Below, in pieces: positions 404-63,076 of a DNA stretch of 64,000 nt. The DNA is from Eledone cirrhosa (Eukaryota). The position numbers were made by a program, and so were the translations under genes. The stretch lies in NCBI GenBank assembly GCA_964016885.1, contig OZ024756.1:20026001-20090000 (forward strand), given 5' to 3'. The first letter of the stretch is position 1; each line of letters opens with the position of its first letter. The notes under the pieces are model-generated. The model was given only the letters and a program-made list of their open reading frames with translations. It was not told where the DNA came from and did not search any database.

Positions 404-455
<52 letters not shown>

Positions 456-530
456 AGATGGCTTCCAAAAATAATGGTTGCATTTTAAAAGGGTACGTCA
501 AAGCTTATTTGTAAAACTGTTATATATTGT

Positions 531-594
531 ATTTTGTCTGATGAAGGCATACCATAATTTAATTTGGTATCCCTGAAATATGTATAATGAAATA
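531..594 (+). ncRNA. Minimal type I hammerhead ribozyme motif, family A
   Basis: ATTTTGT-CTGATGA-stem II (AGGCATACCA/TGGTATCCCT)-GAAA-TATGTA-TA-ATGAAA, inside a ~270 bp element (about 457-727) flanked by (TA)n. Confidence 0.65.
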
Positions 595-1073
595 ATTATG
601 GTTTTATAAATATAGTTTCCATTTATTTAATATTGTATATCTACTCCAAATACTTGTTGAATGCTTTATATCAGTTATAAAAATATTTACTTGTTGTATC
701 CCAACAATTTTAAATAGAACTTTTGCATATATATATATATATATATAAATATATATAAACACACATATATATATAAATACATATGTACGTATGGGTTATA
801 TCGAACACTAATAATTATTTCTACTTTTGGCACAAGGCCAGCAATTATTACTGGTACTTTATTTTATCGACCCCCGTAAGGATGAAAGGCAAAGTTAACC
901 TTGGCGGGATTTGAACTCAGATTGGAAAGGGCCGTAACTCTATGCATCAAAGCATGGCGTCCGACCCTCTACCGATTCTGCCAATCCACCACCCTTGAAT
1001 CGAACACTAATAATAATGTTTGATTCGTTTGTGTTCGATATAACCCATATGTACATATATATATATGTATATA

Positions 1074-3452: not shown

Positions 3453-3629
3453 CTGATAGGGGACAAAAATATAATAAAATTATTTCTTTCGGTTTTAAAT
3501 TTAAGAAATAAAAATATAATAAAAACAATAAAATCTCCGTTGCCATCATATTCTTCTTCTTCCTCCTTTTCCTTTTTTATTTTTCATCCTCTTCCTCTTC
3601 CTCCTCTTCTTCTTCTTCATCTTCTTCAT

Positions 3630-4110
3630 CTTTGCCCCCACATATTGCTGGAGGGTCGTGGGTGGCAGAGTCCGCAAACACTCCTTCCAGCGGGCCCTGT
3701 CAGAAGCAAACGTCTCCAACTGATCCGTCTGGATCTCCAAGCATGACCAGCCAAGCTCACGGATGTTATCCAACCATCTTGCTCGGGGTCTACCCCTGGG
3801 TCTCCTGCCGGCTGGTTTTGCCTGTAAAAATCTGTCCAGCAATTCTTTACCGAGACATTTTGACCATGTCCGGAGCTGTGACCTGTCAATTCGGAGAAGT
3901 AGTGGCTCTACCTGGAGCTATGCACTCTCTTGAGAGTAACATTATTCCAAAAACCCTTCAGAAGAACTCCGTTTCGGTCGCTTACATTCACAATTGTATT
4001 CTTTCAGTTGTTACCCGAGTTTTATGACCATAGGTAAGGGCTGGCACAAATACCGAAATGAAGATAGCAAGTTTGGTTTTTACTTCTACCTCCCTTCTTC
4101 TGATTACCCA
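3630..4110 (-). mobile_element. RTE-like LINE 3' fragment
   Basis: LQAKPAGRRPRGRPRARWLDNI motif with frameshifts; related pieces at about 18420-18590, 21630-21820 and 33150-33330. Confidence 0.75.
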
Positions 4111-4604
4111 ATGATGATGATGATGATGTTAATGATGACAATGCTTATGAAATTAATGATGATGATGATGATGATAATAATAATAATAATTGTTTCTACG
4201 TTTGGCACAAGGCCAGCAATTACCCCAGTGCATTACTGGTACTTTATTTTATCGACCCCGTAAGGATGAAAGGCAAAGTAGTTAACCTCGGCGGGATTTA
4301 TAAAACTCAGACCGTAAAGGGGCACAACTCTATGCTACAAAGCATGGTGTCTGACGCTCTACTGATACTGCTAATCCACCTAATAATAATTGTATCTACT
4401 TTTGGCACAAGGCCAGCAATTACCCCAGTACATTACTGGTACTTTATTTTATCGACCCCCGTAAGGATGACAGGCAAAGTTAACCTCGGCGGGATTTGAA
4501 CTCAGAATGGCAAGGGCCGTAACTCTTTGCGTCAAAGCTTGGCGTCCGACCCTCTACCAATACTGCCAATCCACCTAATAATAATAATGATGATGGACAC
4601 AACA

Positions 4605-6564
4605 GTGGTTGTGTAGGAGACACGGTGAAAAGGCTCCCAGTCCACACTGTAAAGTGGCTGTGTAGGAGACACGGTGAAAAGGCTCCCAGTCCACACTGTA
4701 AAGTGGTTGTGTAGGAGACACGGTGAAAAGGCTCCCAGTCCATACTGTAAAGTGGCTGTGTAGGAGACACGGTGAAAAGGCTCCCAGTCCACACTGTAAA
4801 GTGGCTGTGTAGGGGACACGGTGAAAAGGCTCCCAGTCCACACTGTAAAGTGGTTGTGTAGGAGACACGGTGAAAAGGCTCCCAGTCCATACTCTAAAGT
4901 GGCTGTGTAGGAGACACGGTGAAAAGGCTCCCAGTCCACACTGTAAAGTGGTTGTGTAGGAGACACGGTGAAAAGGCTCCCAGTCCACACTGTAAAGTGG
5001 CTGTGTAGGAGACACGGTGAAAAGGCTCCCAGTCCACACTGTAAAGTGGTTGTGTAGGAGACACGATGAAAAGGCTCCCAGTCCACACTGTAAAGTGGTT
5101 GTGTAGGAGACACGGTGAAAAGGCTCCCAGTCCACACTGTAAAGTGGTTGTGTAGGAGACACGGTGAAAAGGCTCCCAGTCCACACTGTAAAGTGGTTGT
5201 GTAGGAGACACGGTGAAAAGGCTCCCAGTCCACACTGTAAAGTGGTTGTGTAGGAGACACGGTGAAAAGGCTCCCAGTCCATACTGTAAAGTGGCTGTGT
5301 AGGAGACACGGTGAAAAGGCTCCCAGTCCACACTGTAAAGTGGTTGTGTAGGAGACACGGTGAAAAGGCTCCCAGTCCACACTGTAAAGTGGTTGTGTAG
5401 GAGACACGGTGAAAAGGCTCCCAGTCCATACTGTAAAGTGGCTGTGTAGGAGACACGGTGAAAAGGCTCCCAGTCCACACTGTAAAGTGGCTGTGTAGGA
5501 GACACGGTGAAAAGGCTCCCAGTCCACACTGTAAAGTGGCTGTGTAGGAGACACGGTGAAAAGGCTCCCAGTCCACACTGTAAAGTGGTTGTGTAGGAGA
5601 CACGGTGAAAAGGCTCCCAGTCCACACTGTAAAGTGGTTGTGTAGGAGACACGGTGAAAAGGCTCCCAGTCCATACTGTAAAGTGGTTGTGTAGGAGACA
5701 CGGTGAAAAGGCTCCCAGTCCACACTGTAAAGTGGCTGTGTAGGAGACACGGTGAAAAGGCTCCCAGTCCACACTGTAAAGTGGCTGTGTAGGAGACACG
5801 GTGAAAAGGCTCCCAGTCCACACTGTAAAGTGGTTGTGTAGGAGACACGGTGAAAAGGCTCCCAGTCCATACTGTAAAGTGGTCGTGTAGGAGACACGGT
5901 GAAAAGGCTCCCAGTCCACACTGTAAAGTGGTTGTGTAGGAGACACGGTGAAAAGGCTCCCAGTCCACACTGTAAAGTGGCTGTGTAGGAGACACGGTGA
6001 AAAGGCTCCCAGTCCACACTGTAAAGTGGCTGTGTAGGAGACACGCTGAAAAGGCTCCCAGTCCATACTGTAAAGTGGTCGTGTAGGAGACACGGTGAAA
6101 AGGCTCCCAGTCCACACTGTAAAGTGGCTGTGTAGGAGACACGGTGAAAAGGCTCCCAGTCCACACTGTAAAGTGGCTGTGTAGGAGACACGGTGAAAAG
6201 GTTCCCAGTCCACACTGTAAAGTGGTTGTGTAGGAGACACGCTGAAAAGGCTCCCAATCCATACTGTAAAGTGGTCGTGTAGGAGACACGGTGAAAAGGC
6301 TCCCAGTCCACACTGTAAAGTGGCTGTGTAGGAGACACGGTGAAAAGGCTCCCAGTCCACACTGTAAAGTGGTTGTGTAGGAGACACGGTGAAAAGGCTC
6401 CCAGTCCACACTGTAAAGTGGTTGTGTAGGAGACACGGTGAAAAGGCTCCCAGTCCATACTGTAAAGTGGCTGTGTAGGAGACACGGTGAAAAGGCTCCC
6501 AGTCCACACTGTAAAGTGGTTGTGTAGGAGACACGGTGAAAAGGCTCCCAGTCCACACTGTAAA
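4605..6564. repeat. 49-bp minisatellite, about 40 copies, inside a SINE
   Basis: Unit GTGGTTGTGTAGGAGACACGGTGAAAAGGCTCCCAGTCCACACTGTAAA, running into the SINE tail at 6565-6735. Confidence 0.95.
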
Positions 6565-6755
6565 TGTGGTTGGTGTTAGGAAGGGCATCCAGCTGTAAAA
6601 CTAATCCTGCCAGAGACGCTTCAGTGCGAGCGAGACACGGTCTCCCGACCATTCCCGCATCAAATGGAACAAAACCGTCTAACCTATCCTAGCGTGGAAG
6701 ATGGACGTTAAACAATGATGATGATGATGATGATGACAGAGATACTAAGGCTTAC

Positions 6756-9131: not shown

Positions 9132-9170
<39 letters not shown>

Positions 9171-9246
9171 AAGTTATATTTAAAATTGTTGGGTTACAAC
9201 TAGTAAATATTTATAACTGATATAAAAGCACTCGACAAATATTTGT

Positions 9247-9310
9247 ATTTTGTCTGATGAAGGCATAGCATATTGTTAATATGATATCCCCGAAATATAT
9301 ATAATGAAAT
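9247..9310 (+). ncRNA. Hammerhead motif, family A
   Basis: ATTTTGT-CTGATGA-AGGCATAGCATATT/AATATGATATCCCC-GAAA-TATATA-TA-ATGAAAT. Confidence 0.6.
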
Positions 9311-10066
9311 AAATATGGTTTTATAAATATAGTTTTCCATTTATTTAATATTATATATATATATATATATTTATTTATGTAAAGTTCGGAGCGTATGTGC
9401 ATCATTATCATCGTCATCGTTTAACGTCCGTGTTCCACGCTTGCATGGGTTTGGACGGGAGTTTTCCCACTTGAGGCAAGAGTGGTTGTCATTGCTCGCA
9501 TAGGACTGTCTGGCGGGTTTTCTACAGCTGGATGCCCTTCCTAACACCAACCACATTTACAGTGTGGGGCTGGGAGGTTTTTACCGTGTTGCCTACACGG
9601 CCACATTACAGCGTGGACTGTCTGGCGGGTTTTCTACAGCTGGATGCCCTTCCTAACACCAACCACATTTACAGTGTGGGGCTGGGAGGTTTTTACCATG
9701 TTGCCTAACACGGCCACATTACAGCGTGGACTGTGTGTTTTTCTGGGACGAGCTGATAAATTCCGACCTCACACACTTACACCTCTCCAAGGCAATGTCA
9801 CTGGACCGAGACCTTTGGCGGTACTCAGTAATAGAGAAGACCCGCCTTACCTAAATACTAAGTAAAACCTACTACAGTCAGTAGGCATCTCTAACAAAAT
9901 ACACCCCCGTCCCACCTCCCCCACCCCATCCACACCGCCCCTTTCAATGTAAAGTTATGTATATATGTATGTATATATGTATGTATATATATATATACAT
10001 ACATATATATATATATACATACATACATATATATACATACATACATATATATACATACATACATAC

Positions 10067-10136
<70 letters not shown>

Positions 10137-10765
10137 CATATATATATCATCATTCATTTTACATCCGCTTTTCCCTGCTTGCAAGGGTGGGACGGGATAT
10201 ATATACATATACATATACATACATACATATATATATAGTATAAAGAAAACGAAAAATCAGTGATGCATCTGGACTTAATTTATTGCGTGTTACAATTACA
10301 CCGGCAGGTAGCTCGAGTCATGGTCCTTGTATGGATCTGGCTGATTCTACTTCTGCAGGTTCTTTCAGACAGGTATTTCGTTTGGAGCAAATTTTATCAC
10401 ACATATATATATATATATATTCATCACCATCATCATCATTTCATTTTTACGTCCGCTTTTCCCTGCTTGCAAGGGTGGGACGGGAACTGATTTTGGCTTG
10501 ATTTCTACAGCTGGATGCCCTTCCTAACACCAACCTCATTTACAGTGAGTGCTGGGTGCTTTTTTGCCGTGGCACCTCCACGACCACTTTGCAGTGGAAT
10601 GATATGGACCCCAGTCCCTATCATCTCATTTCTACAGCTGAGTAAACTGGAGCAATGTGAAATAAAGTGTCTTGCTCAAGGAAACAACACATCACCCGGT
10701 CTGAGAATTGAACTCACAACCTTTCGATTGCAAGGCCAATGCTCTAACCACTAAGCCATGTGCCT

Positions 10766-10856
<91 letters not shown>

Positions 10857-11130
10857 TGTGGTTGCTTCATTCCTCTTCAGTATATATATATATCATCATC
10901 ATCATCATCATTTAACGTCCATTTTCTAACCCATACTAGCATGAATGTTAAACGATGATGATGATAATATATATATATATATATATATATATGCAAAAGT
11001 TCTATTTAAATTGTTGGGATACAACAAGCAAACACTTTTATAACTGATATAAAGTAACGGTCTTCCAAAAGTAACCGTTGCATTTTGAAAGGGTATGTTA
11101 AAATTTATTTATAAAACTGGTATATATTGT

Positions 11131-11193
11131 ATTTTGTCTGATGAAAGCATACCATAATTTAACATGGTATCCTTGAAATATGTATAATAAAAT
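11131..11193 (+). ncRNA. Hammerhead motif, family A
   Basis: ATTTTGT-CTGATGA-AAGCATACCAT/ATGGTATCCTT-GAAA-TATGTA-TA-ATAAAAT. Confidence 0.65.
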
Positions 11194-11591
11194 AGATATG
11201 GTTTTATAAATATAGTTTCCATTTGTTAATATCATATTATATATATATATATATTCCCACCACCCCCACCCCATCCACGCCACCCCGTTCTATGTAAAGT
11301 TGTGTTGGTGCCACACCATCCAGGCCGAAACAAATGAGATTGTGTAGGTGTCACGACAAAAAACACACAGTCCACGCTGTAATGTGGCCGTGTAGGCAAC
11401 ACGGTAAAAACCTCCCAGACCCACACTGTAAATGTGGTTGGTGCTAGGAAGGGCATCCAACTGTAGAAAACCTGCCAGACAGTCCTATGCGAGCAAGACA
11501 ATCACTCTTGCCTCAAGTGGGACTACCCCCGTCCAAACCCATGCAAGCGTGGAACACGGACGTTAAACGTTGATGATGATGATGATGATGA

Positions 11592-12040: not shown

Positions 12041-12569
12041 TGAAACAATTTACTTTCCACCTGTCTTGTTCTATTTTGTTAGAATGGGTTGGAAGGTGGT
12101 GCAAATTCTGATTTTTCCATCATTTGCATATCTTGAATAGAGTTTCACTGCCATTCATATCATTAGCTTCCATGACAACACAAATATCAGCCTGGAGACA
12201 AAGCAAGACTGTTTCAAGGAACATTTCTCATGGGACAGAATTATATAAAGAATAAACACTAACTTTACTGTTGCTACTTTAAATAGTGTCTATCCCATTA
12301 TCTAATGAACATATTTTATATATATATATATATATAACGAAGGAAATGTGGTAAGGAACCAGATGGACCATAACGCACCAAAGTACTCAATACTTAGGGT
12401 AGTAGAGTGGGTAATAGGAACGAGTAGGACCCCGACGGCTGAGCTCAAGCCGTTTCGACGGCTAATTCTGGATGCAATTAGAGTCCAGAATTAGCCGTCG
12501 AAACGGCTTAAGCTCAGCCGTCAGGGTCCTACTCGTTCCTATATATATATATATATTTATATATATATA

Positions 12570-13260
12570 AAGGTAGGGAGCCAATGTATCTCCCTGGAGC
12601 ACTCCAGCCAGTATCTCAAAGAACTCTGTCATCCCATCAGGTGTAATGACTTGGGCTTTGGTGTTGGTGTAGAGCAGTGATATCAGGTCCACTATCTTCT
12701 TGGGGATTCCATAAGCCTGTAAGATCTTCATCAGGCAGTGACGGTCCACAGAATCAAAGGCCTTCCTAAAGTCAATGAAAACCATGACCGCAGGAAGCCA
12801 TTTTGCTCTAGCTCCCTCTAATATCCTCCTCAGCATCAGGATGTGACTGGTGGTTGATCTTCTCTCTCTGAAGCCGCTCTGGTTGTCCCTGAGCTTCTTC
12901 TCCATCTCAGACTGGATCCTGTTAAGAATCATCCTGTTGAGGGTCTTTTCCACAAGTGACGTCAGTGAGATCCCCCTGTAGTTGTTGGTGTTAGAGAGAT
13001 CTCCCTTCTTTGGCACTGGGACGATGTTACTGATCCTCCACTGATTCGGGGCAACTCCTTTCTCCAGTGCCCGGTTACAGAACCCCAGGATGATATCATC
13101 AAAATCACACCTCTTCATCACCTCTGATGCCACTCCAACTTCTCCATGAGCCTTGCCCTCCTTGATCTTCTTCTTGGATCTCTGAAGCTGCTCTCTGGTG
13201 AAGTCCTCTGTCTCAATATCCAGTTCCTCAAACAGCCGCCTGATCTCCCCAGTGCTCTGG
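12570..13260 (-). mobile_element. Non-LTR retrotransposon (RTE-like) reverse transcriptase fragment
   Basis: PKKGDLS..NYRGISLTS, NQSGFR..RST, IDFRKAFDSV, GVLQGDTLAP; truncated at both ends. Confidence 0.9.
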
Positions 13261-13410
13261 GCCGAGGTCAGCTTTGCCTTTCATCCTTACAGGGTCGATA
13301 AAATGAAGTACCAGTAATACACTGGGATAATTGCTGGCCTTGTGCCAAAAGTAGAAACAATTATTATTCCTGGCAATATTACAACAAACATATATATATA
13401 TATATAAACA

Positions 13411-15801: not shown

Positions 15802-16331
15802 CTAGAATGAAAAGACAGTCTGTATACATATATGAGGGTTGGCTGAATGGTTCATAGACTGACTATGAAGGAATGATGCTAGAGCTCTGAAATATTCTTA
15901 TGATTCAAAGGATGAATGACTGCACAAGGGATGATGGACATTTCCTTTTATATACAACTTTGCCGCTGGGATGATGATGATGATGATGATGGTGGTGGTG
16001 ATGATGATGGTGATGATGATAATGAGAAAGAGAAGAAAACAGGGATATATACACATATATACATACAAATATTCACATATACATACATATGCACATATAC
16101 ATACTTATATACATACATACACACACACACACATATATACATGCACATATACATACACACACACATCATCATCATCATCGTTTAACATCCATCTTCCATG
16201 CTAGCATGGGTTGGACGGGCTTGTCCCACTTGAGGCAAGATTGGTCGGGTGACCGTGTCTCGCTCATATAGAACTGTTTCTGGCAGGTTTTCTATGGCTG
16301 GATGCCCTTCCTAACACCAACCACATTTACA

Positions 16332-17300
16332 GTGTGGACTGGGAGCCTTTTTACCATGTCTCCCACACAACCACTTTACAGTGTGGACTAGGTGCTTTTT
16401 GTCGTGTCACCTACACGACCACTTTACAGTGTGGACTGGGTGCTTTTTGTCGTGTCACCTACACGACCACTTTACAGTGTGGACTGGGAGCCTTTTTACC
16501 GTGTCTCCCACACAACCACTTTACAGTGTGGACTGGGTGCTTTTTGTTGTGTCACCTACACGACCACTTTACAGTGTGGACTGGGTGCTTTTTGTCGTGT
16601 CACCTACACGACCACTTTACAGTGTGGACTGGGAGCCTTTTTACCGTGTCTCCCACACAACCACTTTACAGTGTGGACTGGGTGCTTTTTGTTATGTCAC
16701 CTACACGACCACTTTACAGTGTGGACTGGGTGCTTTTTGTCGTGTCACCTACACGACCACTTTACAGTGTGGACTGGGTGCTTTTTGTCGTGTCACCTAC
16801 ACGACCACTTTACAGTGTGGACTGGGAGCCTTTTTACCGTGTCTCCCACACAACCACTTTACAGTGTGGACTGGGTGCTTTTTGTTGTGTCACCTACACG
16901 ACCACTTTACAGTGTGGACTGGGTGCTTTTTGTCGTGTCACCTACACGACCACTTTACAGTGTGGACTGGGTGCTTTTTGTCGTGTCACCTACACAACCA
17001 CTTTACAGTGTGGACTGGGAGCCTTTTTACCGTGTCTCCCACACAACCACTTCACAGTGTGGACTGGGTGCTTTTTGTCGTGTCACCTACACGACCACTT
17101 TACAGTGTGGACTGGGTGCTTTTTGTCGTGTCACCTACACGACCACTTTACAGTGTGGACTGGGAGCCTTTTTACCGTGTCTCCCACACAACCACTTTAC
17201 AGTGTGGACTGGGTGCTTTTTGTTGTGTCACCTACACGACCACTTTACAGTGTGGACTGGGTGCTTTTTGTCGTGTCACCTACACGACCACTTTACAGCG
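16332..17300. repeat. 49/48-bp higher-order minisatellite inside a SINE
   Basis: Two unit types in the order ABB ABB ABBB ABBB ABB ABB. Confidence 0.9.
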
Positions 17301-18016
17301 TGGATTGGATGTTTTGTGGTACAAACATAACTTTACAGAGAAAGGGTGGTGTGGAGGGAAGTGGGAGGATGGAGTGGGGTGTGTCGGGTGGGGTGTATAT
17401 TGGAATAAGAGGTGCCTACTGACTGTAGGTTTAAGTTAGTATGTAAGGAAAGACAGGTCTTCTGTATTACTGCACAGCACCAAAGGTCTTGATCCAGTGA
17501 CATGGTCTTAAAGCGGTGTAAGTGTGCAAGGTCAGTTTTTATCATGTCGTCCCAGGTCTTTCTGGGTCTACCCACTCCATAGCTTCCATCAATTTTGATC
17601 GCTCTGCACTTTTTTATTCAGCTGTCGTCTTTCATGCGCATCACGTGACCATAACAGCGTAATCTGCTCTCAAGTAAACTGCATCTGAACCCCCTCATTC
17701 CTAATTTCTCAGTTCGTTTATGTTTTTGCTGTTCGTGTATATTACGATTACACATCCAATGGAGCATGCATGCTTCATTCCTTTCCAATGTGCACAGATC
17801 CTCTGCACACAATGCCCATGTCTCACTGCCATGTAACATTGCTGTTCATATACAAGCATCATACAATCATATACATACTTACAAATATACATACATACAC
17901 ATATACATATATATATATACATACATACAATACACACATATATACATGTGTATATACATACATACATACATACATATAAATATGCACACACACGCATATA
18001 TAAAACAATCTCCTAC

Positions 18017-21516: not shown

Positions 21517-22744
21517 AAATAAATAAATAAAAATAAACAAACAAACAAAAAAAATAAATAAATAAATAAAAAAATAAATTAAATAAAAATAAACAAATAA
21601 ATAAAAATAAATAAATAAAAAAATTGAATGTTAACTAGAGCAAAATCAACAGGTAGGAGACCCAGAGGCTAGACCCTGAGCAAGATGGTTGGATAACATC
21701 CATGAACTTGGTTGGTCACGCTTGGGGACCCAGTCGGATCAATTTGAGACGGTTGCTTCTAACAGGAACATTGCTGGAAGGCGTGTTTGAGCACTCTTCC
21801 CCCATGATACTCCCAGGTATAAGTGGGCAAAAAAGAACGAGGAGGAGGAGGAAGGGGAGGTTAGCTAAGTACTTATAAAGAAGCAAAAATAAAAATAACA
21901 ATTATCAATAAAACTTTTAACCCTTTACCATTTACATTACTCTATATATACTGTTATATTTTCACAGTAAACACTTTACCTCACCTAATTATTTCACATA
22001 ATATTGGATCTATGAGATTTTGATGATATCTACTTTGAGTGAAGGCGTGTGGCTGAGTGGTTAGAGAATTGGATTCGCAATCGTGAGGTTGTGAGTTCGA
22101 TTCCTGGACCAGGCGATGCATTATGTCCTTGAGCAAGACACTTTATTTCACGTTGCTCCTTCTACCTGGAATTGCGACCGATAGATAGTATTAGCAATTG
22201 GAAAGACCAACGGAAACATTGTTTCCTCGGTCCGATTTGACGAAAGTCGATCGTTCCTTCTTACTTTGAGAACAATACTATAATGTCAGTATGAGGGGCT
22301 GATTATGGCTGGTTTGAACAGAAAGAGGCAAGAGAATTCTGGCCAGATATGGCCGGATAAAATGCTAAAGGGTAGTATATCTTGTCACTAGGAATTCTTC
22401 TTTACAAATACCACCAGATGTAAGGCCCATTGTGACAGATGTCAACTTCACAACAACAGCAGCTGGTCTTACTAGCCAAGTAAGAAAGTTTTACTTCTTC
22501 AGTCAAACATCTTTTTTTTTAAACAATATAACTAAGGTGGGGAAAACCTGGGGGAGCAGTCTACAGACTATACATAATCAAAAACAACAAAAACAATCCT
22601 CATTGTTTTCTTCTGTATTATTGTGGTGGACTGGCAGTAATCAGTAGAGCATCAGACAATATGCTTTGTGGCATTTAGTTACAACCCTTTACATTCTGAG
22701 TTCAAATAACAAGGCTAACTTTGGGCAAAACTAAACAAAAACCC

Positions 22745-23287: not shown

Positions 23288-24253
23288 CTGTTATATAGAA
23301 AGGTTTAGAAAAGGAATACAATTTAGAAAAATGGAAATTATGACCAGTTTTTGTAAGTGTGTGTGTATGTGAGGTTCCTTCTTTATGTTATTGCTCAGAA
23401 AAAAAAAGACAACATATTTTATAAGTAGGCTTTCTTTACAAACAGCTAGCGAATTTGAAAATTAGGTAAGTAATATGTGATTACGCCGTATATGACTACA
23501 TAGAATTAGTGTGTTAGTTGGGATTTTGCTTCGTGTCTCCCTATTTATATACATATATATATATATATACCGGCTATGGTTATATAGCTTCTAATTGAAT
23601 GGAAGGAGGCATGAGTGGCATGTTGGTGTAATGTTAACACATTGGTCCAGCAAACCAAAGATGTAGGTTCATGTCCTATGTAACATCAATACTCATCCTT
23701 TTTTCCAAAATCTCAACTAACAGACTAATTCTATGTAGTCAAATACGGCATAAGCACATGTTACAACATATTTTATATTTTGTGATAATAGACAAAGTAG
23801 GGTCCTTGGTAGACAATAAGTTGGGATGGTCATGGTAGGAAAACATTTCAGTATAAAGCAGTGTAGTTAATTCAAAGCATTGTAAGATATGTAGTATGTA
23901 GTAAAAGACTGATAATTTTCAAAAAGCCTGTACAATGCGGTAGAAATATATAAAGGGCAAATGATAACAAATAAAATAAAACAAAGTAATGTTTTACCCA
24001 GTATATTTTAACATGATATTTCAGGGTTATTACCCCTCTTTTCAAACGTGAAGCTGAAGCAGTTCAAAACAAAACAAAAAATGTGCAATCAAAGTATTCT
24101 TCCATAACTGGTCTATGTGTCGGTAAAACACATGAAGAAGTTCGCGACAACAACCATTCTACCTCATGTATTTCTGACCTGTTATTTTATCATTTATCCT
24201 TGGTTTTATTTGCCTGATTGATGATTATAAGTCTGCTCAATTATAAGTAGACC

Positions 24254-29302: not shown

Positions 29303-29367
<65 letters not shown>

Positions 29368-29536
29368 TAAAAGGAATTCCAACTTTGTCTGATTTACTCG
29401 TTTTATTTACAATCCTTTAAAATTATAATGGTATTATAATGAAATAGTATGGTAGAATATTAAATGTTAAGTGTTAATTGAACAAGTACTTTCATGCTCA
29501 GTTGAAAATTGCAAACTTGATTGTCACCACTGAATA

Positions 29537-29575
29537 TGAACCTGAAGATTGCGAAAGCATGAAAGTACTTGTTCA
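29537..29575 (+). ncRNA. Minimal hammerhead motif, family E
   Basis: TGAAC-CTGAAGA-TTGC(GAAA)GCAT-GAAA-GTAC-TT-GTTCA; 5-bp stem I and palindromic stem III. Confidence 0.65.
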
Positions 29576-30116
29576 ATTAACACTTATCATTTAATATTCT
29601 AGCATACTATTTCATTATAATACCATTATAAATTTTAAAGGATTGTAAATAAAACGAGTAAATCAGACAAAGTTGGAATTCCTTTTATTAATATAATCTT
29701 CTATACACAATCATACACACCCGTGTATATTTATTTATATATATATATATGTGTGTGTGTGTACACATATAAGAGGGTAACCCATGCTAGCATGGAAGAT
29801 GGACGTTAAACGATGATGATGTGTATTAGTTGTTGTCTACTGCAAAAGACATTGACATTGTCTAAAGGATTATTCCTGGTTTTTCCCTTCAATATCGTAG
29901 GAGTTCACTCTGAAACAAAGAATTCATTTCTTGAATCATTGAGTCTATAATTCCACTTGCACTGCTTTTGTGCAAAAGAAACTTTATATGCATATATATA
30001 TCTATGAAGGATTTCCTTCGAATGTAGAAGCCATTTCTATATTAAATTTTGTATATACTGTACAAATGTATTGAGTACATTACTTACTGTGGTTACCCAT
30101 GATTGAACCCAGGGCT

Positions 30117-46245: not shown

Positions 46246-47463
46246 TATTACAAACTATAGTCAGAGATAGAAGAAACCACAGCAGCAGACATGTTCCAAA
46301 GGAGAAGTTAATAATTTATTATGTGTAAAAAGCACGTAATGGGGAATTCATTATGAGTTAATGAAGTTTTCTACCCACACAGCTAGATCCCACTATATAC
46401 ACATACATAACTACACCTCTCTCTCTATATATATATATATTTATACATGGCTATATCTCATACATACATACACAGCAACACCTCTATATATATACACACA
46501 TAAATAGCTACTCCTCAATATATATATACATAGCTACATCTACATATATATACACATACACAGCTCTCTCTCTCTATATATACATAGCTCTATATATATA
46601 TATACATAGCTACAGCTCAACATATATATATATACACATAAAAATAGCTACTCCTCAATATATATATATATACACACATAGATAGCTACTCCTCAATATA
46701 TATATATATACATACCTAGATACACCTGCATATATATACACATACACAGCTACAGCTCAATATATATATATATACACATAGCTCCACTAGCATATATATA
46801 CATAGCTACACCTACATATATATACACATGCATAACTTAACTACACCTGAATATATATACATACACAGCTACATCTCATATATACGTACACAGCAACACC
46901 TCAATATATGCACATAAATAACTTCAATGTACTATATACACATACATAGGCTACACCTCAATATATATATATATACACATACACAGCTACATCTCAATAT
47001 ATACACACACATAGGCTACACCTCAATATATATATATATATATATACACACACAGCTACATATTAATATATACACATTCATGGCTACAGCTCAATATATA
47101 TATACACACACAGCTACATATTAATATATACACATACAAAGCTAAACCACAATATATACACACACACAGCTACATCTCATTATATTTACATACACAGTAA
47201 CATCTCAATATATATATATATACATAGCTAAACCTCAATATATACACATACATAGCTAAACTTCTATATATACACACATACATGGAGGCACATGGCTTAG
47301 TGGTTAGAGCATTGGCCTTGCAATCGAAAGGTTGTGAGTTCAATTCTCAGACCGGATGATGTGTTGTTTCCTTGAACAAGACACTTTATTTCCCATTGCT
47401 CCAGTTTACTCAGCTGTAGAAATGAGATGATAGAGACTGGGGTCCATATCATTCCACTGCAAA

Positions 47464-49177
47464 GTGGTCGTGTAGGTGCCATGGCAAAAAAGCACCCAGC
47501 CCACACTGTAAAGTGGTCGTGGAGGTGCCACGGCAAAACAACACCCAGCCCACACTGTAAAGTGGTCGTGGAGGTGCCACGGCAAAAAAGCACCCAGCCC
47601 ACACTGTAAAGTGGTCGTGGAGGTGCCACGGCAAAAAAGCACCCAGCCCACACTGTAAAGTGGTCGTGGAGGTGCCACGGCAAAACAACACCCAGCCCAC
47701 ACTGTAAAGTGGTCGTGGAGGTGCCACGGCAAAACAACACCCAGCCCACACTGTAAAGTGGTCGTGGAGGTGCCACGGCAAAAAAGCACCCAGCCCACAC
47801 TGTAAAGTGGTCGTGGAGGTGCCACGGCAAAAAAGCACCCAGCCCACACTGTAAAGTGGTCGTGGAGGTGCCACGGCAAAACAACACCCAGCCCACACTG
47901 TAAAGTGGTCGTGGAGGTGCCACGGCAAAACAACACCCAGCCCACACTGTAAAGTGGTCGTGGAGGTGCCACGGCAAAAAAGCACCCAGCCCACACTGTA
48001 AAGTGGTCGTGGAGGTGCCACGGCAAAAAAGCACCCAGCCCACACTGTAAAGTGGTCGTGGAGGTGCCATGGCAAAAAAGCACCCAGCCCACACTGTAAA
48101 GTGGTCGTGGAGGTGTCACAGCAAAAAAGCACCCAGCCCACACTGTAAAGTAGTCGTGGAGGTGTCACAGCAAAAAAGCACCCAGATCACACTGTAAAGT
48201 GGTCGTGGAGGTGCCACGGCAAAAAAGCACTCAGCCCACACTGTAAAGGGGTCGTGGAGGTGCCACGGCAAAAAAGCACCCAGCTCACACTGTAAAGTGG
48301 TCGTGGAGGTGCCATGGTAAAAAAGCACCCAGCTCACACTGTAAAGTAGTCGTGGAGGTGCCACGGCAAAAAAGCACCCAGCTCACACTGTAAAGTGGTC
48401 GTGGAGGTGCCACGGCAAAAAAGCACCCAGCTCACACTGTAAAGTGGTCGTGGAGGTGCCATGGTAAAAAAGCACCCAGCTCACACTGTAAAGTAGTCGT
48501 GGAGGTGCCACGGCAAAAAAGCACCCAGCTCACACTGTAAAGTGGTCGTGGAGGTGCCATGGTAAAAAAGCACCCAGCTCACACTGTAAAGTGGTCGTGG
48601 AGGTGCCATGGTAAAAAAGCACCCAGCTCACACTGTAAAGTGGTCGTGGAGGTGCCATGGTAAAAAAGCACCCAGCTCACACTGTAAAGTGGTCGTGGAG
48701 GTGCCATGGTAAAAAAGCACCCAGCTCACACTGTAAAGTGGTCGTGGAGGTGCCATGGTAAAAAAGCACCCAGCTCACACTGTAAAGTAGTCGTGGAGGT
48801 GCCACGGCAAAAAAGCACCCAGCTCACACTGTAAAGTGGTCGTGGAGGTGCCATGGTAAAAAAGCACCCAGCTCACACTGTAAAGTGGTCGTGGAGGTGC
48901 CACGGCACAAAAGCACCCAGCCCACACTGTAAAGGGGTCGTGGAGGTGCCACGGCAAAAAAGCACCCAGCCCACACTGTAAAGTGGTCGTGGAGGTGCCA
49001 TGGTAAAAAAGCACCCAGCCCACACTGTAAAGGGGTCGTGGAGGTGCCATGGTAAAAAAGCACCCAGCCCACACTGTAAAGGGGTCGTGGAGGTGCCACG
49101 GCAAAAAAGCACCCAGCCCACACTGTAAAGGGGTCGTGGAGGTGCCACGGAAAAAAGCACCCAGCATTCACTGTAAA
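47464..49177. repeat. 49-bp minisatellite, about 35 copies, inside a family 1 SINE (47283-49280)
   Basis: Unit GTGGTCGTGGAGGTGCCACGGCAAAAAAGCACCCAGCCCACACTGTAAA between an intact SINE head and tail. Confidence 0.95.
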
Positions 49178-62602: not shown

Positions 62603-62658
<56 letters not shown>

Positions 62659-62744
62659 AAAGTTTTATTTAAAATTGTTGGGTTACAACAAGTAAAAATT
62701 TTATAACTGATATAAAGCACTCAACAAGTTTTGGAGTAGATATA

Positions 62745-62989
62745 CGATATTAAACAAATGGAAACTATATTTATAAAACCATATTTATTTCATTATACAT
62801 ATTTCGGGGATACCATATTAAAAATATGGCATGCCTTCTTCAGATAAAATACAATATTATTTATAAAACTGTTTATATATTGTATTTTATCTGAAGAAGG
62901 CATGCCATATTTTTAATATGGTATCCCCGAAATATGTATAATGAAATAAATATGGTTTTATAAATATAGTTTCCATTTGTTTAATATCG
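62745..62989. repeat. Perfect 113-bp inverted repeat with a family A hammerhead in each arm (62787-62850 minus, 62884-62947 plus)
   Basis: Arms 62745-62857 and 62877-62989 are exact reverse complements with a 19-nt spacer; core CTGAAGA...GAAATATGTATA. Confidence 0.85.
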
Positions 62990-62991
62990 AA

Positions 62992-63076
<85 letters not shown>

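Follow-up and report, generated by a model that had tools for sequence, protein, structure and literature searches.

In the excerpted text of PMC8557442, the features given for Penelope-like elements (PLEs) comprise 5' truncation, a neighbouring copy that is inverted and truncated, a tail of 30–40 bp and a bias towards (TA)n, with hammerhead ribozymes about 100–200 nt from the PLE 3' end. The available part of PMC3846280 describes inverted insertions in head-to-head arrangement, in which one arm carries a tail and the junctions show microhomology. According to excerpts of PMC11167929, AT-rich DNA is cut on both strands by a purified PLE protein, which begins reverse transcription at two sites that set the limits of the tail and which mainly uses RNA that is uncleaved. 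The minimal hammerheads of PLE ends, as presented in the excerpts of PMC4209133, occur mostly singly or as opposite-strand pairs 100–700 bp apart, have an extra base after A9 and a palindromic stem III, and show low activity, and this only as multimers; the dimer model of hammerheads is reviewed in PMC6765202 (excerpted text). Since PLE ends bearing hammerheads are on record from across the animals, the class itself is already known. For cephalopods, the portions consulted give PLEs at 6.83% and 190 families in Octopus vulgaris (PMC13282606) and 235 Rfam hammerhead loci, without detail, in the giant squid (PMC6962438).

Here, we describe a hammerhead-bearing repeat, termed family A, in a 64,000-nt stretch of the genome of Eledone cirrhosa, the whole of which is referred to as the window. 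Family A is probably a new family of this already known element type rather than a new system. Our literature searches found no published description of it; PLEs being abundant in Octopus vulgaris, it may already sit unnamed in a cephalopod repeat library. An exact 30-nt piece had no match in metagenome, prokaryote-genome or viral contigs and was absent from the parts of the supplements of PMC13282606 and PMC8557442 that were available, in which line breaks can hide a match. Three octopus PLEs were rejected as candidates for its identity on the basis of the excerpts of PMC8557442: Hydra-1_Obim has a different hammerhead sequence, and the 3' ends of Naiad_Obim and Naiad_Ovul are by eye unrelated to family A and appear there without a canonical hammerhead.

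Anatomy of the insertions

The earlier note had described family A as an approximately 270-bp element with five copies in (TA)n tracts. The (TA)n setting stands, as all eight flanks consist of (TA)n, in which target-site duplications are unreadable. There are indeed five hammerhead motifs, but only four independent insertions, because the last two motifs, at 62.7–63.0 kb, lie on the identical arms of one inverted insertion; nor are the 270 bp the whole unit. Only insertion 1 is plain, the other three being rearranged. The features are as follows, with arm positions in brackets given in the coordinates of copy 1 (454–727).

454..727, plus strand: insertion 1, a plain 5'-truncated 3' end of 274 bp with (TA)n on both sides
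9168..9351, arms on both strands: insertion 2, inverted arm 9168–9245 (647–727) and forward arm 9239–9351 (522 to about 633)
10992..11238, arms on both strands: insertion 3, inverted arm 10992–11054 (664–727) and forward arm 11062–11238 (462 to about 633)
62655..62997, arms on both strands: insertion 4, inverted arm 62655–62857 (524–727) and forward arm 62857–62997 (505–643)
627..645, plus strand: proximal 3' end zone (end B), where the forward arms of insertions 2–4 stop and (TA)n follows
640..727, plus strand: optional 3' extension ('tail', about 85–95 nt), ending at the distal end A (727)

Together these insertions, which are 88–94% alike, make up 1,046 bp or 1.6% of the window. They have two 3' ends, i.e. 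position 727 and the zone near 627–645, and variable 5' ends, with starts at 454, 462, 505, 522 and 524. Insertion 1 and each of the three inverted arms carry the tail, which all three forward arms lack. All three inversions are head-to-head, the inverted arm having the distal end and the forward arm the proximal one. In two of the three inverted copies the arms are free of overlap, and in insertion 2 they are joined by microhomology; the arms of insertion 4 share about 120 nt and have the same sequence over the motif.

Nine listed public sequencing runs contain part of 454–727, and four of these, all from the same organism, share half the words or more; no RNA run is found among the listed runs that contain the piece, and the shares in runs X6–X9 are small. 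Four of the 12 listed runs (X1, X4, X5 and X10) were aligned to 454–727 at 80% likeness, which yielded 4,287 contigs in X1, 1,369 in X4 and 84 in X5 (from a second organism), as well as 34,354 of the 12,467,656 RAD-seq reads of X10. These data contain thousands of family A variants, both 3' ends and further inversion joints. In X1, the summed depth falls from 2.9 million at 604–613 to 0.18 million at 504–513, dips at 634–653 and rises again at 664–693; such a two-humped profile is expected from two 3' ends that are each truncated in the 5' direction, with the reservation that likeness to copy 1 and edge effects influence depth as well, and that contig depth does not equal copy number. Among the rows listed (24 of 412), loose ends entering TA repeats are found in X10 behind position 640 (5,847 reads) and 627 (1,397 reads), and in X4 behind position 724 (three contigs). 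Among the 15 joints listed (of 16), 13 connect opposite strands, each joint resting on few read starts.

The reads also reveal variation within the family. Variants at 526, 531, 561 and 562 are common in X4 (526: 13,116 of a depth of 18,287) and nearly absent in X1, although both runs come from the same organism; the X4 variants are a distinct subfamily. Loose ends in X4 before position 574 lead into a different stem II.

The hammerhead motif: structure, folding and variation

A descriptor requiring the hammerhead core, a stable stem II and a stem I of at least 5 bp found five loci in the window and no match in 40 block-wise dinucleotide shuffles, thereby bearing out the motif copies that had been noticed at 531, 9247, 11131, 62787 (minus) and 62884.

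530–594, plus strand: hammerhead of insertion 1, predicted cut after 586
9246–9311, plus strand: hammerhead of insertion 2, predicted cut after 9303
11130–11194, plus strand: hammerhead of insertion 3, predicted cut after 11186
62883–62948, plus strand: hammerhead of the forward arm of insertion 4, predicted cut after 62940
62786–62851, minus strand: hammerhead of the inverted arm of insertion 4, predicted cut after 62794
530–537/587–594, plus strand: stem I of the insertion 1 hammerhead
538–544, plus strand: CUGAUGA of the same hammerhead
545–554/565–574, plus strand: its stem II
575–578, plus strand: its GAAA
578–585, plus strand: its stem III segment

The order CUGANGA, GAAA, NUH is present in all five motifs, and each motif combines a stem I of 8 bp with a stem II that is long and bulged, a 6-nt near-palindrome and an AUA triplet. 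To judge from their sequence, the family A motifs are of the type I hammerhead pattern with an intact core. Most of what the earlier note had read from the letters was thus confirmed, i.e. that CUGANGA, GAAA and AUA are kept in every motif, that N7 is U or A, that changes in stem I (G-U to A-U, U-G to U-A) preserve pairing, that the stem III segment (UAUGUA/UAUAUA) is a short near-palindrome, and that a cut would be expected after the AUA at about 586, where the predicted site indeed falls. Across the motifs, pairing is 100% in stem I and 89.6% in stem II; stem III has only 2 bp as a monomer, with its 8-nt segment being self-complementary. Rfam searches returned no hammerhead family for 454–727 at E up to 10 and no hammerhead among the matches listed for the whole window (150 of 223). 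To our knowledge, Rfam models miss minimal PLE hammerhead variants.

The closest described ribozymes are the metazoan PLE pseudo-LTR hammerheads (Cervera and de la Pena 2014, PMC4209133). As far as the excerpts of that paper go, these share with family A the type I topology and long bulged stem II, an extra base after A9 with a G-C below it (in one of two possible registers), the short palindromic stem III and the occurrence mostly as single dispersed motifs with opposite-strand pairs. Stem I of family A is longer, however, with 8 bp compared to 4–5 bp in the Schistosoma families, and the predicted cleavage site of family A is AUA.

Folding of the monomer is no better than that of shuffled sequences (z −1.37 to +0.75). 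Closing stem III within one copy would cost 2.9 kcal/mol, whereas pairing of the 8-nt stem III segment with a second copy would yield −2.2 to −3.2 kcal/mol, which fits dimer-type ribozymes. The suggestion of a dimer-favouring stem III therefore holds up, and its near-perfect palindrome makes this a ribozyme suited to dimer tests. In insertion 4, the two arms would form a single hairpin of about 120 bp (−187.5 and −182.4 kcal/mol), which in this folding model would bury both of its hammerhead motifs. The tail (640–727) folds no better than shuffled sequences (z −0.32).

An important question is whether the hammerhead is conserved as a structure. Among the four insertions, none of the 12 core positions varies, compared to 28 of 189 other positions (P ~0.15). 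All pairs of stem I are kept through two one-sided changes, whereas stem II, counted in the register with the extra base after A9, shows one two-sided change (insertion 3) and five unpaired cells; these five are the only unpaired ones among 88 pair cells, and a change on both sides occurs in one of 22 pairs. With these four copies, the covariation score was reached by 240 of 500 shuffles, or by 136 of 500 in the other stem II register, i.e. covariation is not significant. Thus, of the 'structure-preserving variation' that had been claimed, the maintenance of stem I stands, but as far as the window copies are concerned the overall pattern is suggestive only: four copies without significant covariation hold too little variation, and selection is not demonstrated from them. 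The sequencing runs add larger numbers. In X1, 33 of 43 common changes (at 32 positions) were examined, none of which falls in the core (P 0.22 over the whole piece; P 0.085 within the motif alone). In the motif, 8 of 11 changes fit the fold compared to 4.5 expected under random placement (permutation P=0.013), with these 11 marking related subfamilies and thus being non-independent, and 10 further common changes lying outside the count. From these sequence comparisons, selection on the ribozyme in source copies appears likely.

Directly 3' of the hammerhead, none of the 28 positions of 597–624 carries a common X1 variant (same 33 of 43 changes), in the region of highest depth. This invariance may possibly reflect a protein-binding signal or an alignment bias.

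A looser hammerhead scan gave eight matches in the window compared to a mean of 0.13 in 30 shuffles. Two of these, at 24045 and 52796 (both minus strand), were dropped as chance matches because they belong to no family or lie inside a (GAT)n tract. Another one defines a second family.

29362–29693: second hammerhead family, with C3 at 29542 on the plus strand and the predicted cut after 29570

This locus is again a head-to-head inversion in (TA)n, with arms that are 97.8% identical and both end at the same terminus, and it shares only short AT-rich matches with family A (best E 0.003). The base of stem II in its motif is formed by a U-U pair, as in the Hydra-clade PLE hammerheads in the excerpts of PMC8557442. 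A second, nearly unrelated hammerhead family with the same inverted (TA)n anatomy provides independent support for an origin of family A from PLEs.

Origin of the insertions

The link to PLEs that had been proposed for family A holds. Five of seven features looked for are present, i.e. a hammerhead in the 3' repeat, variable 5' truncation, an inverted copy, a tail at one end and a microsatellite or AT-rich target. The remaining two are a direct partial tandem, found in none of the four short insertions but expected mainly in long copies, and an open reading frame (ORF). The earlier note had called for a search for linked Penelope RT/GIY-YIG ORFs, which came back negative: none of PLE type is present among 271 of the 318 ORFs of the window (low-repeat ORFs of at least 45 aa, apart from 29 that lie within a minisatellite and the shortest 18), the family A copies themselves being too short to reach an ORF. 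As far as the available parts of PMC8557442 and PMC3846280 go, EN+ PLEs (Penelope/Poseidon, Neptune, Hydra, Naiad) share with family A the 5' truncation, the head-to-head inversion, a tail that is optional and confined to one arm, a target of (TA)n and a hammerhead about 100–200 nt from the 3' end, the family A cut site being located 141 nt before the distal end. The family A tail of about 85–95 nt, however, is 2–3 times longer than the 30–40 bp described for these elements. This long tail and the strict polarity of the two ends, as observed in three inversions plus read ends, are the only unusual points.

A PLE-type origin, from either a long or a short source, is thus highly probable in our analysis. 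More specifically, we favour, with somewhat better than even confidence, the reading that the four insertions are 3' ends (the pseudo-LTR region) of a longer PLE retrotransposon, copied in by target-primed reverse transcription. Of the non-autonomous, ribozyme-bearing element of about 270 bp in the earlier note, the hammerhead and the connection to PLEs would then remain, but the copies have the appearance of 3' ends of something longer, truncated on the 5' side and often inverted. In analogy to published PLE biology, an RT/GIY-YIG protein would nick a (TA)n tract on both of its strands, and cDNA would be primed at two places on the RNA: one strand would prime at the distal end (727), the other at the proximal end (about 635–643). 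Both cDNAs would stop early, and their joining would generate a head-to-head insertion in which only one side carries the tail. Sequence 5' of the cut site is retained in all insertions, so that the RNA templates had likely not been cleaved at this hammerhead. Within the source element, cleavage by the ribozyme would be only weak and would take place either in a dimer formed by tandem copies or with the help of protein; the copies scattered in introns were likely defunct from the moment of insertion.

A useful comparison is PAc, the Poseidon of Anolis (excerpts of PMC11167929), which likewise has two 3' ends downstream of a hammerhead and an AT-rich target, and the insertions of which also keep sequence upstream of the cut site. 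In contrast to family A, the ORF of PAc starts inside the hammerhead, whereas no open frame follows the family A hammerhead, and the spacing of the two ends is smaller in PAc. Going one step further, family A might be a very abundant PLE family that has an unusually long tail of about 90 nt and in which priming from the two target strands would invariably occur at separate sites, distal and proximal, often on one RNA, with the hammerhead being selected in source copies and the X4-enriched subfamily as a possible living source; this extended picture is tentative. If true, its short copies, which number in the thousands, would serve as a natural archive of how PLEs integrate. The value of the present data lies in naming an abundant repeat and in a large sample of junctions that bears on how PLEs make inverted copies and tails.

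The main rival reading is a short non-autonomous PLE derivative of about 300–500 nt, moved in trans by PLE protein with the same two-site priming and retaining ribozyme and tail as cis signals. Such derivatives have been described (PMC8557442 and 10.64898/2026.07.22.740005, as excerpted), and the short unit would agree with the lack of a PLE ORF among the window ORFs scanned, with the very low depth at the 5' end and with insertions 1 and 3 starting within about 10 nt of each other (454 and 462). Moreover, 10 of the 13 inversion joints among those listed have one side at 460–461 or 519–521, a clustering that runs against purely random truncation and could mark a short unit. However, heavy 5' truncation of long PLEs would look alike, and the fall in depth is partly an edge effect. 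In three X4 contigs, position 457 is preceded by 30 nt of concordant non-TA sequence, which points to 454 being a truncation point, with the sequence upstream of 454 amounting to 30–32 nt in a few contigs of this run only. In X10, depth only halves from about 800 at 494–503 to about 400 at 454–463, and 724 reads run over the two ends. With sequence thus continuing past 454, we regard a short source as rather unlikely and the truncated end of a longer PLE as the better account.

Family A could also derive from a non-LTR retrozyme, i.e. tandem units cut to monomers, circularized and reinserted, with the window copies being solo derivatives. According to the excerpts of PMC7229834 and 10.64898/2026.07.22.740005, these elements are small, AT-rich, non-coding and PLE-related with a type I hammerhead, which fits the approximately 270 nt and low GC of family A, and solo monomers exist. 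Retrozymes are tandem, however, whereas none of the four insertions contains tandem copies within the window, no 727-to-454 head-to-tail joint is seen among 15 of the 16 joints, none of the seven arms begins at the cut site (587), and fixed 3' with variable 5' ends would be unexpected from a circle. We therefore rejected this very improbable reading, the earlier note having named retrozymes beside PLEs as carriers of minimal type I hammerheads, for the lack of its defining tandem units of 150–450 bp, each with a hammerhead.

Least probable of all is a non-PLE repeat such as a TA-targeting MITE or a LINE end with an incidental hammerhead pattern: inverted arms and TA target do resemble a MITE, and the core is not clearly more conserved than 597–624, but the motif is far above chance, 8 of the 11 common variants examined in it fit the fold, and a MITE was rejected because identical terminal inverted repeats at fixed ends are lacking, with the ends of inverted copies differing (727 versus about 635–643), arm lengths varying and insertion 1 showing no inversion.

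Host gene and neighbourhood

Protein searches identify the host gene as the metazoan cytoplasmic dynein 2 heavy chain, encoded on the minus strand. Two such searches named no cephalopod; the SINEs and the microsatellite load give the genome an octopus-like look. The family A copies lie between dynein exons, with insertion 1 presumably being intronic. The three lone family A hammerheads are antisense to the host gene, an arrangement with a chance of 1 in 8 in so few cases, and the only sense-oriented one sits inside the long hairpin of insertion 4. A dynein AAA5-type exon at about 22369–22480 (weak PF12781 match, E 2.9e-05) has plus-strand orientation and breaks the order of the other dynein exons, which are on the minus strand; this suggests a local inversion, a duplication or a misassembly.

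Other repeats are found throughout the window. A reverse transcriptase fragment at 12465–13280 on the minus strand (PF00078, E 8e-22), which we take to be LINE/RTE-like, is interrupted by a (TA)n tract and shows no link to family A by its position; further remnants of RT elements are located near 3549–3917. Several tRNA-like SINE heads have identical Rfam scores, and minisatellites of 48–49 bp have grown inside dispersed repeats across the window, e.g. at 4604–6581, 10701–10758, 16320–17315 and 47455–49177.
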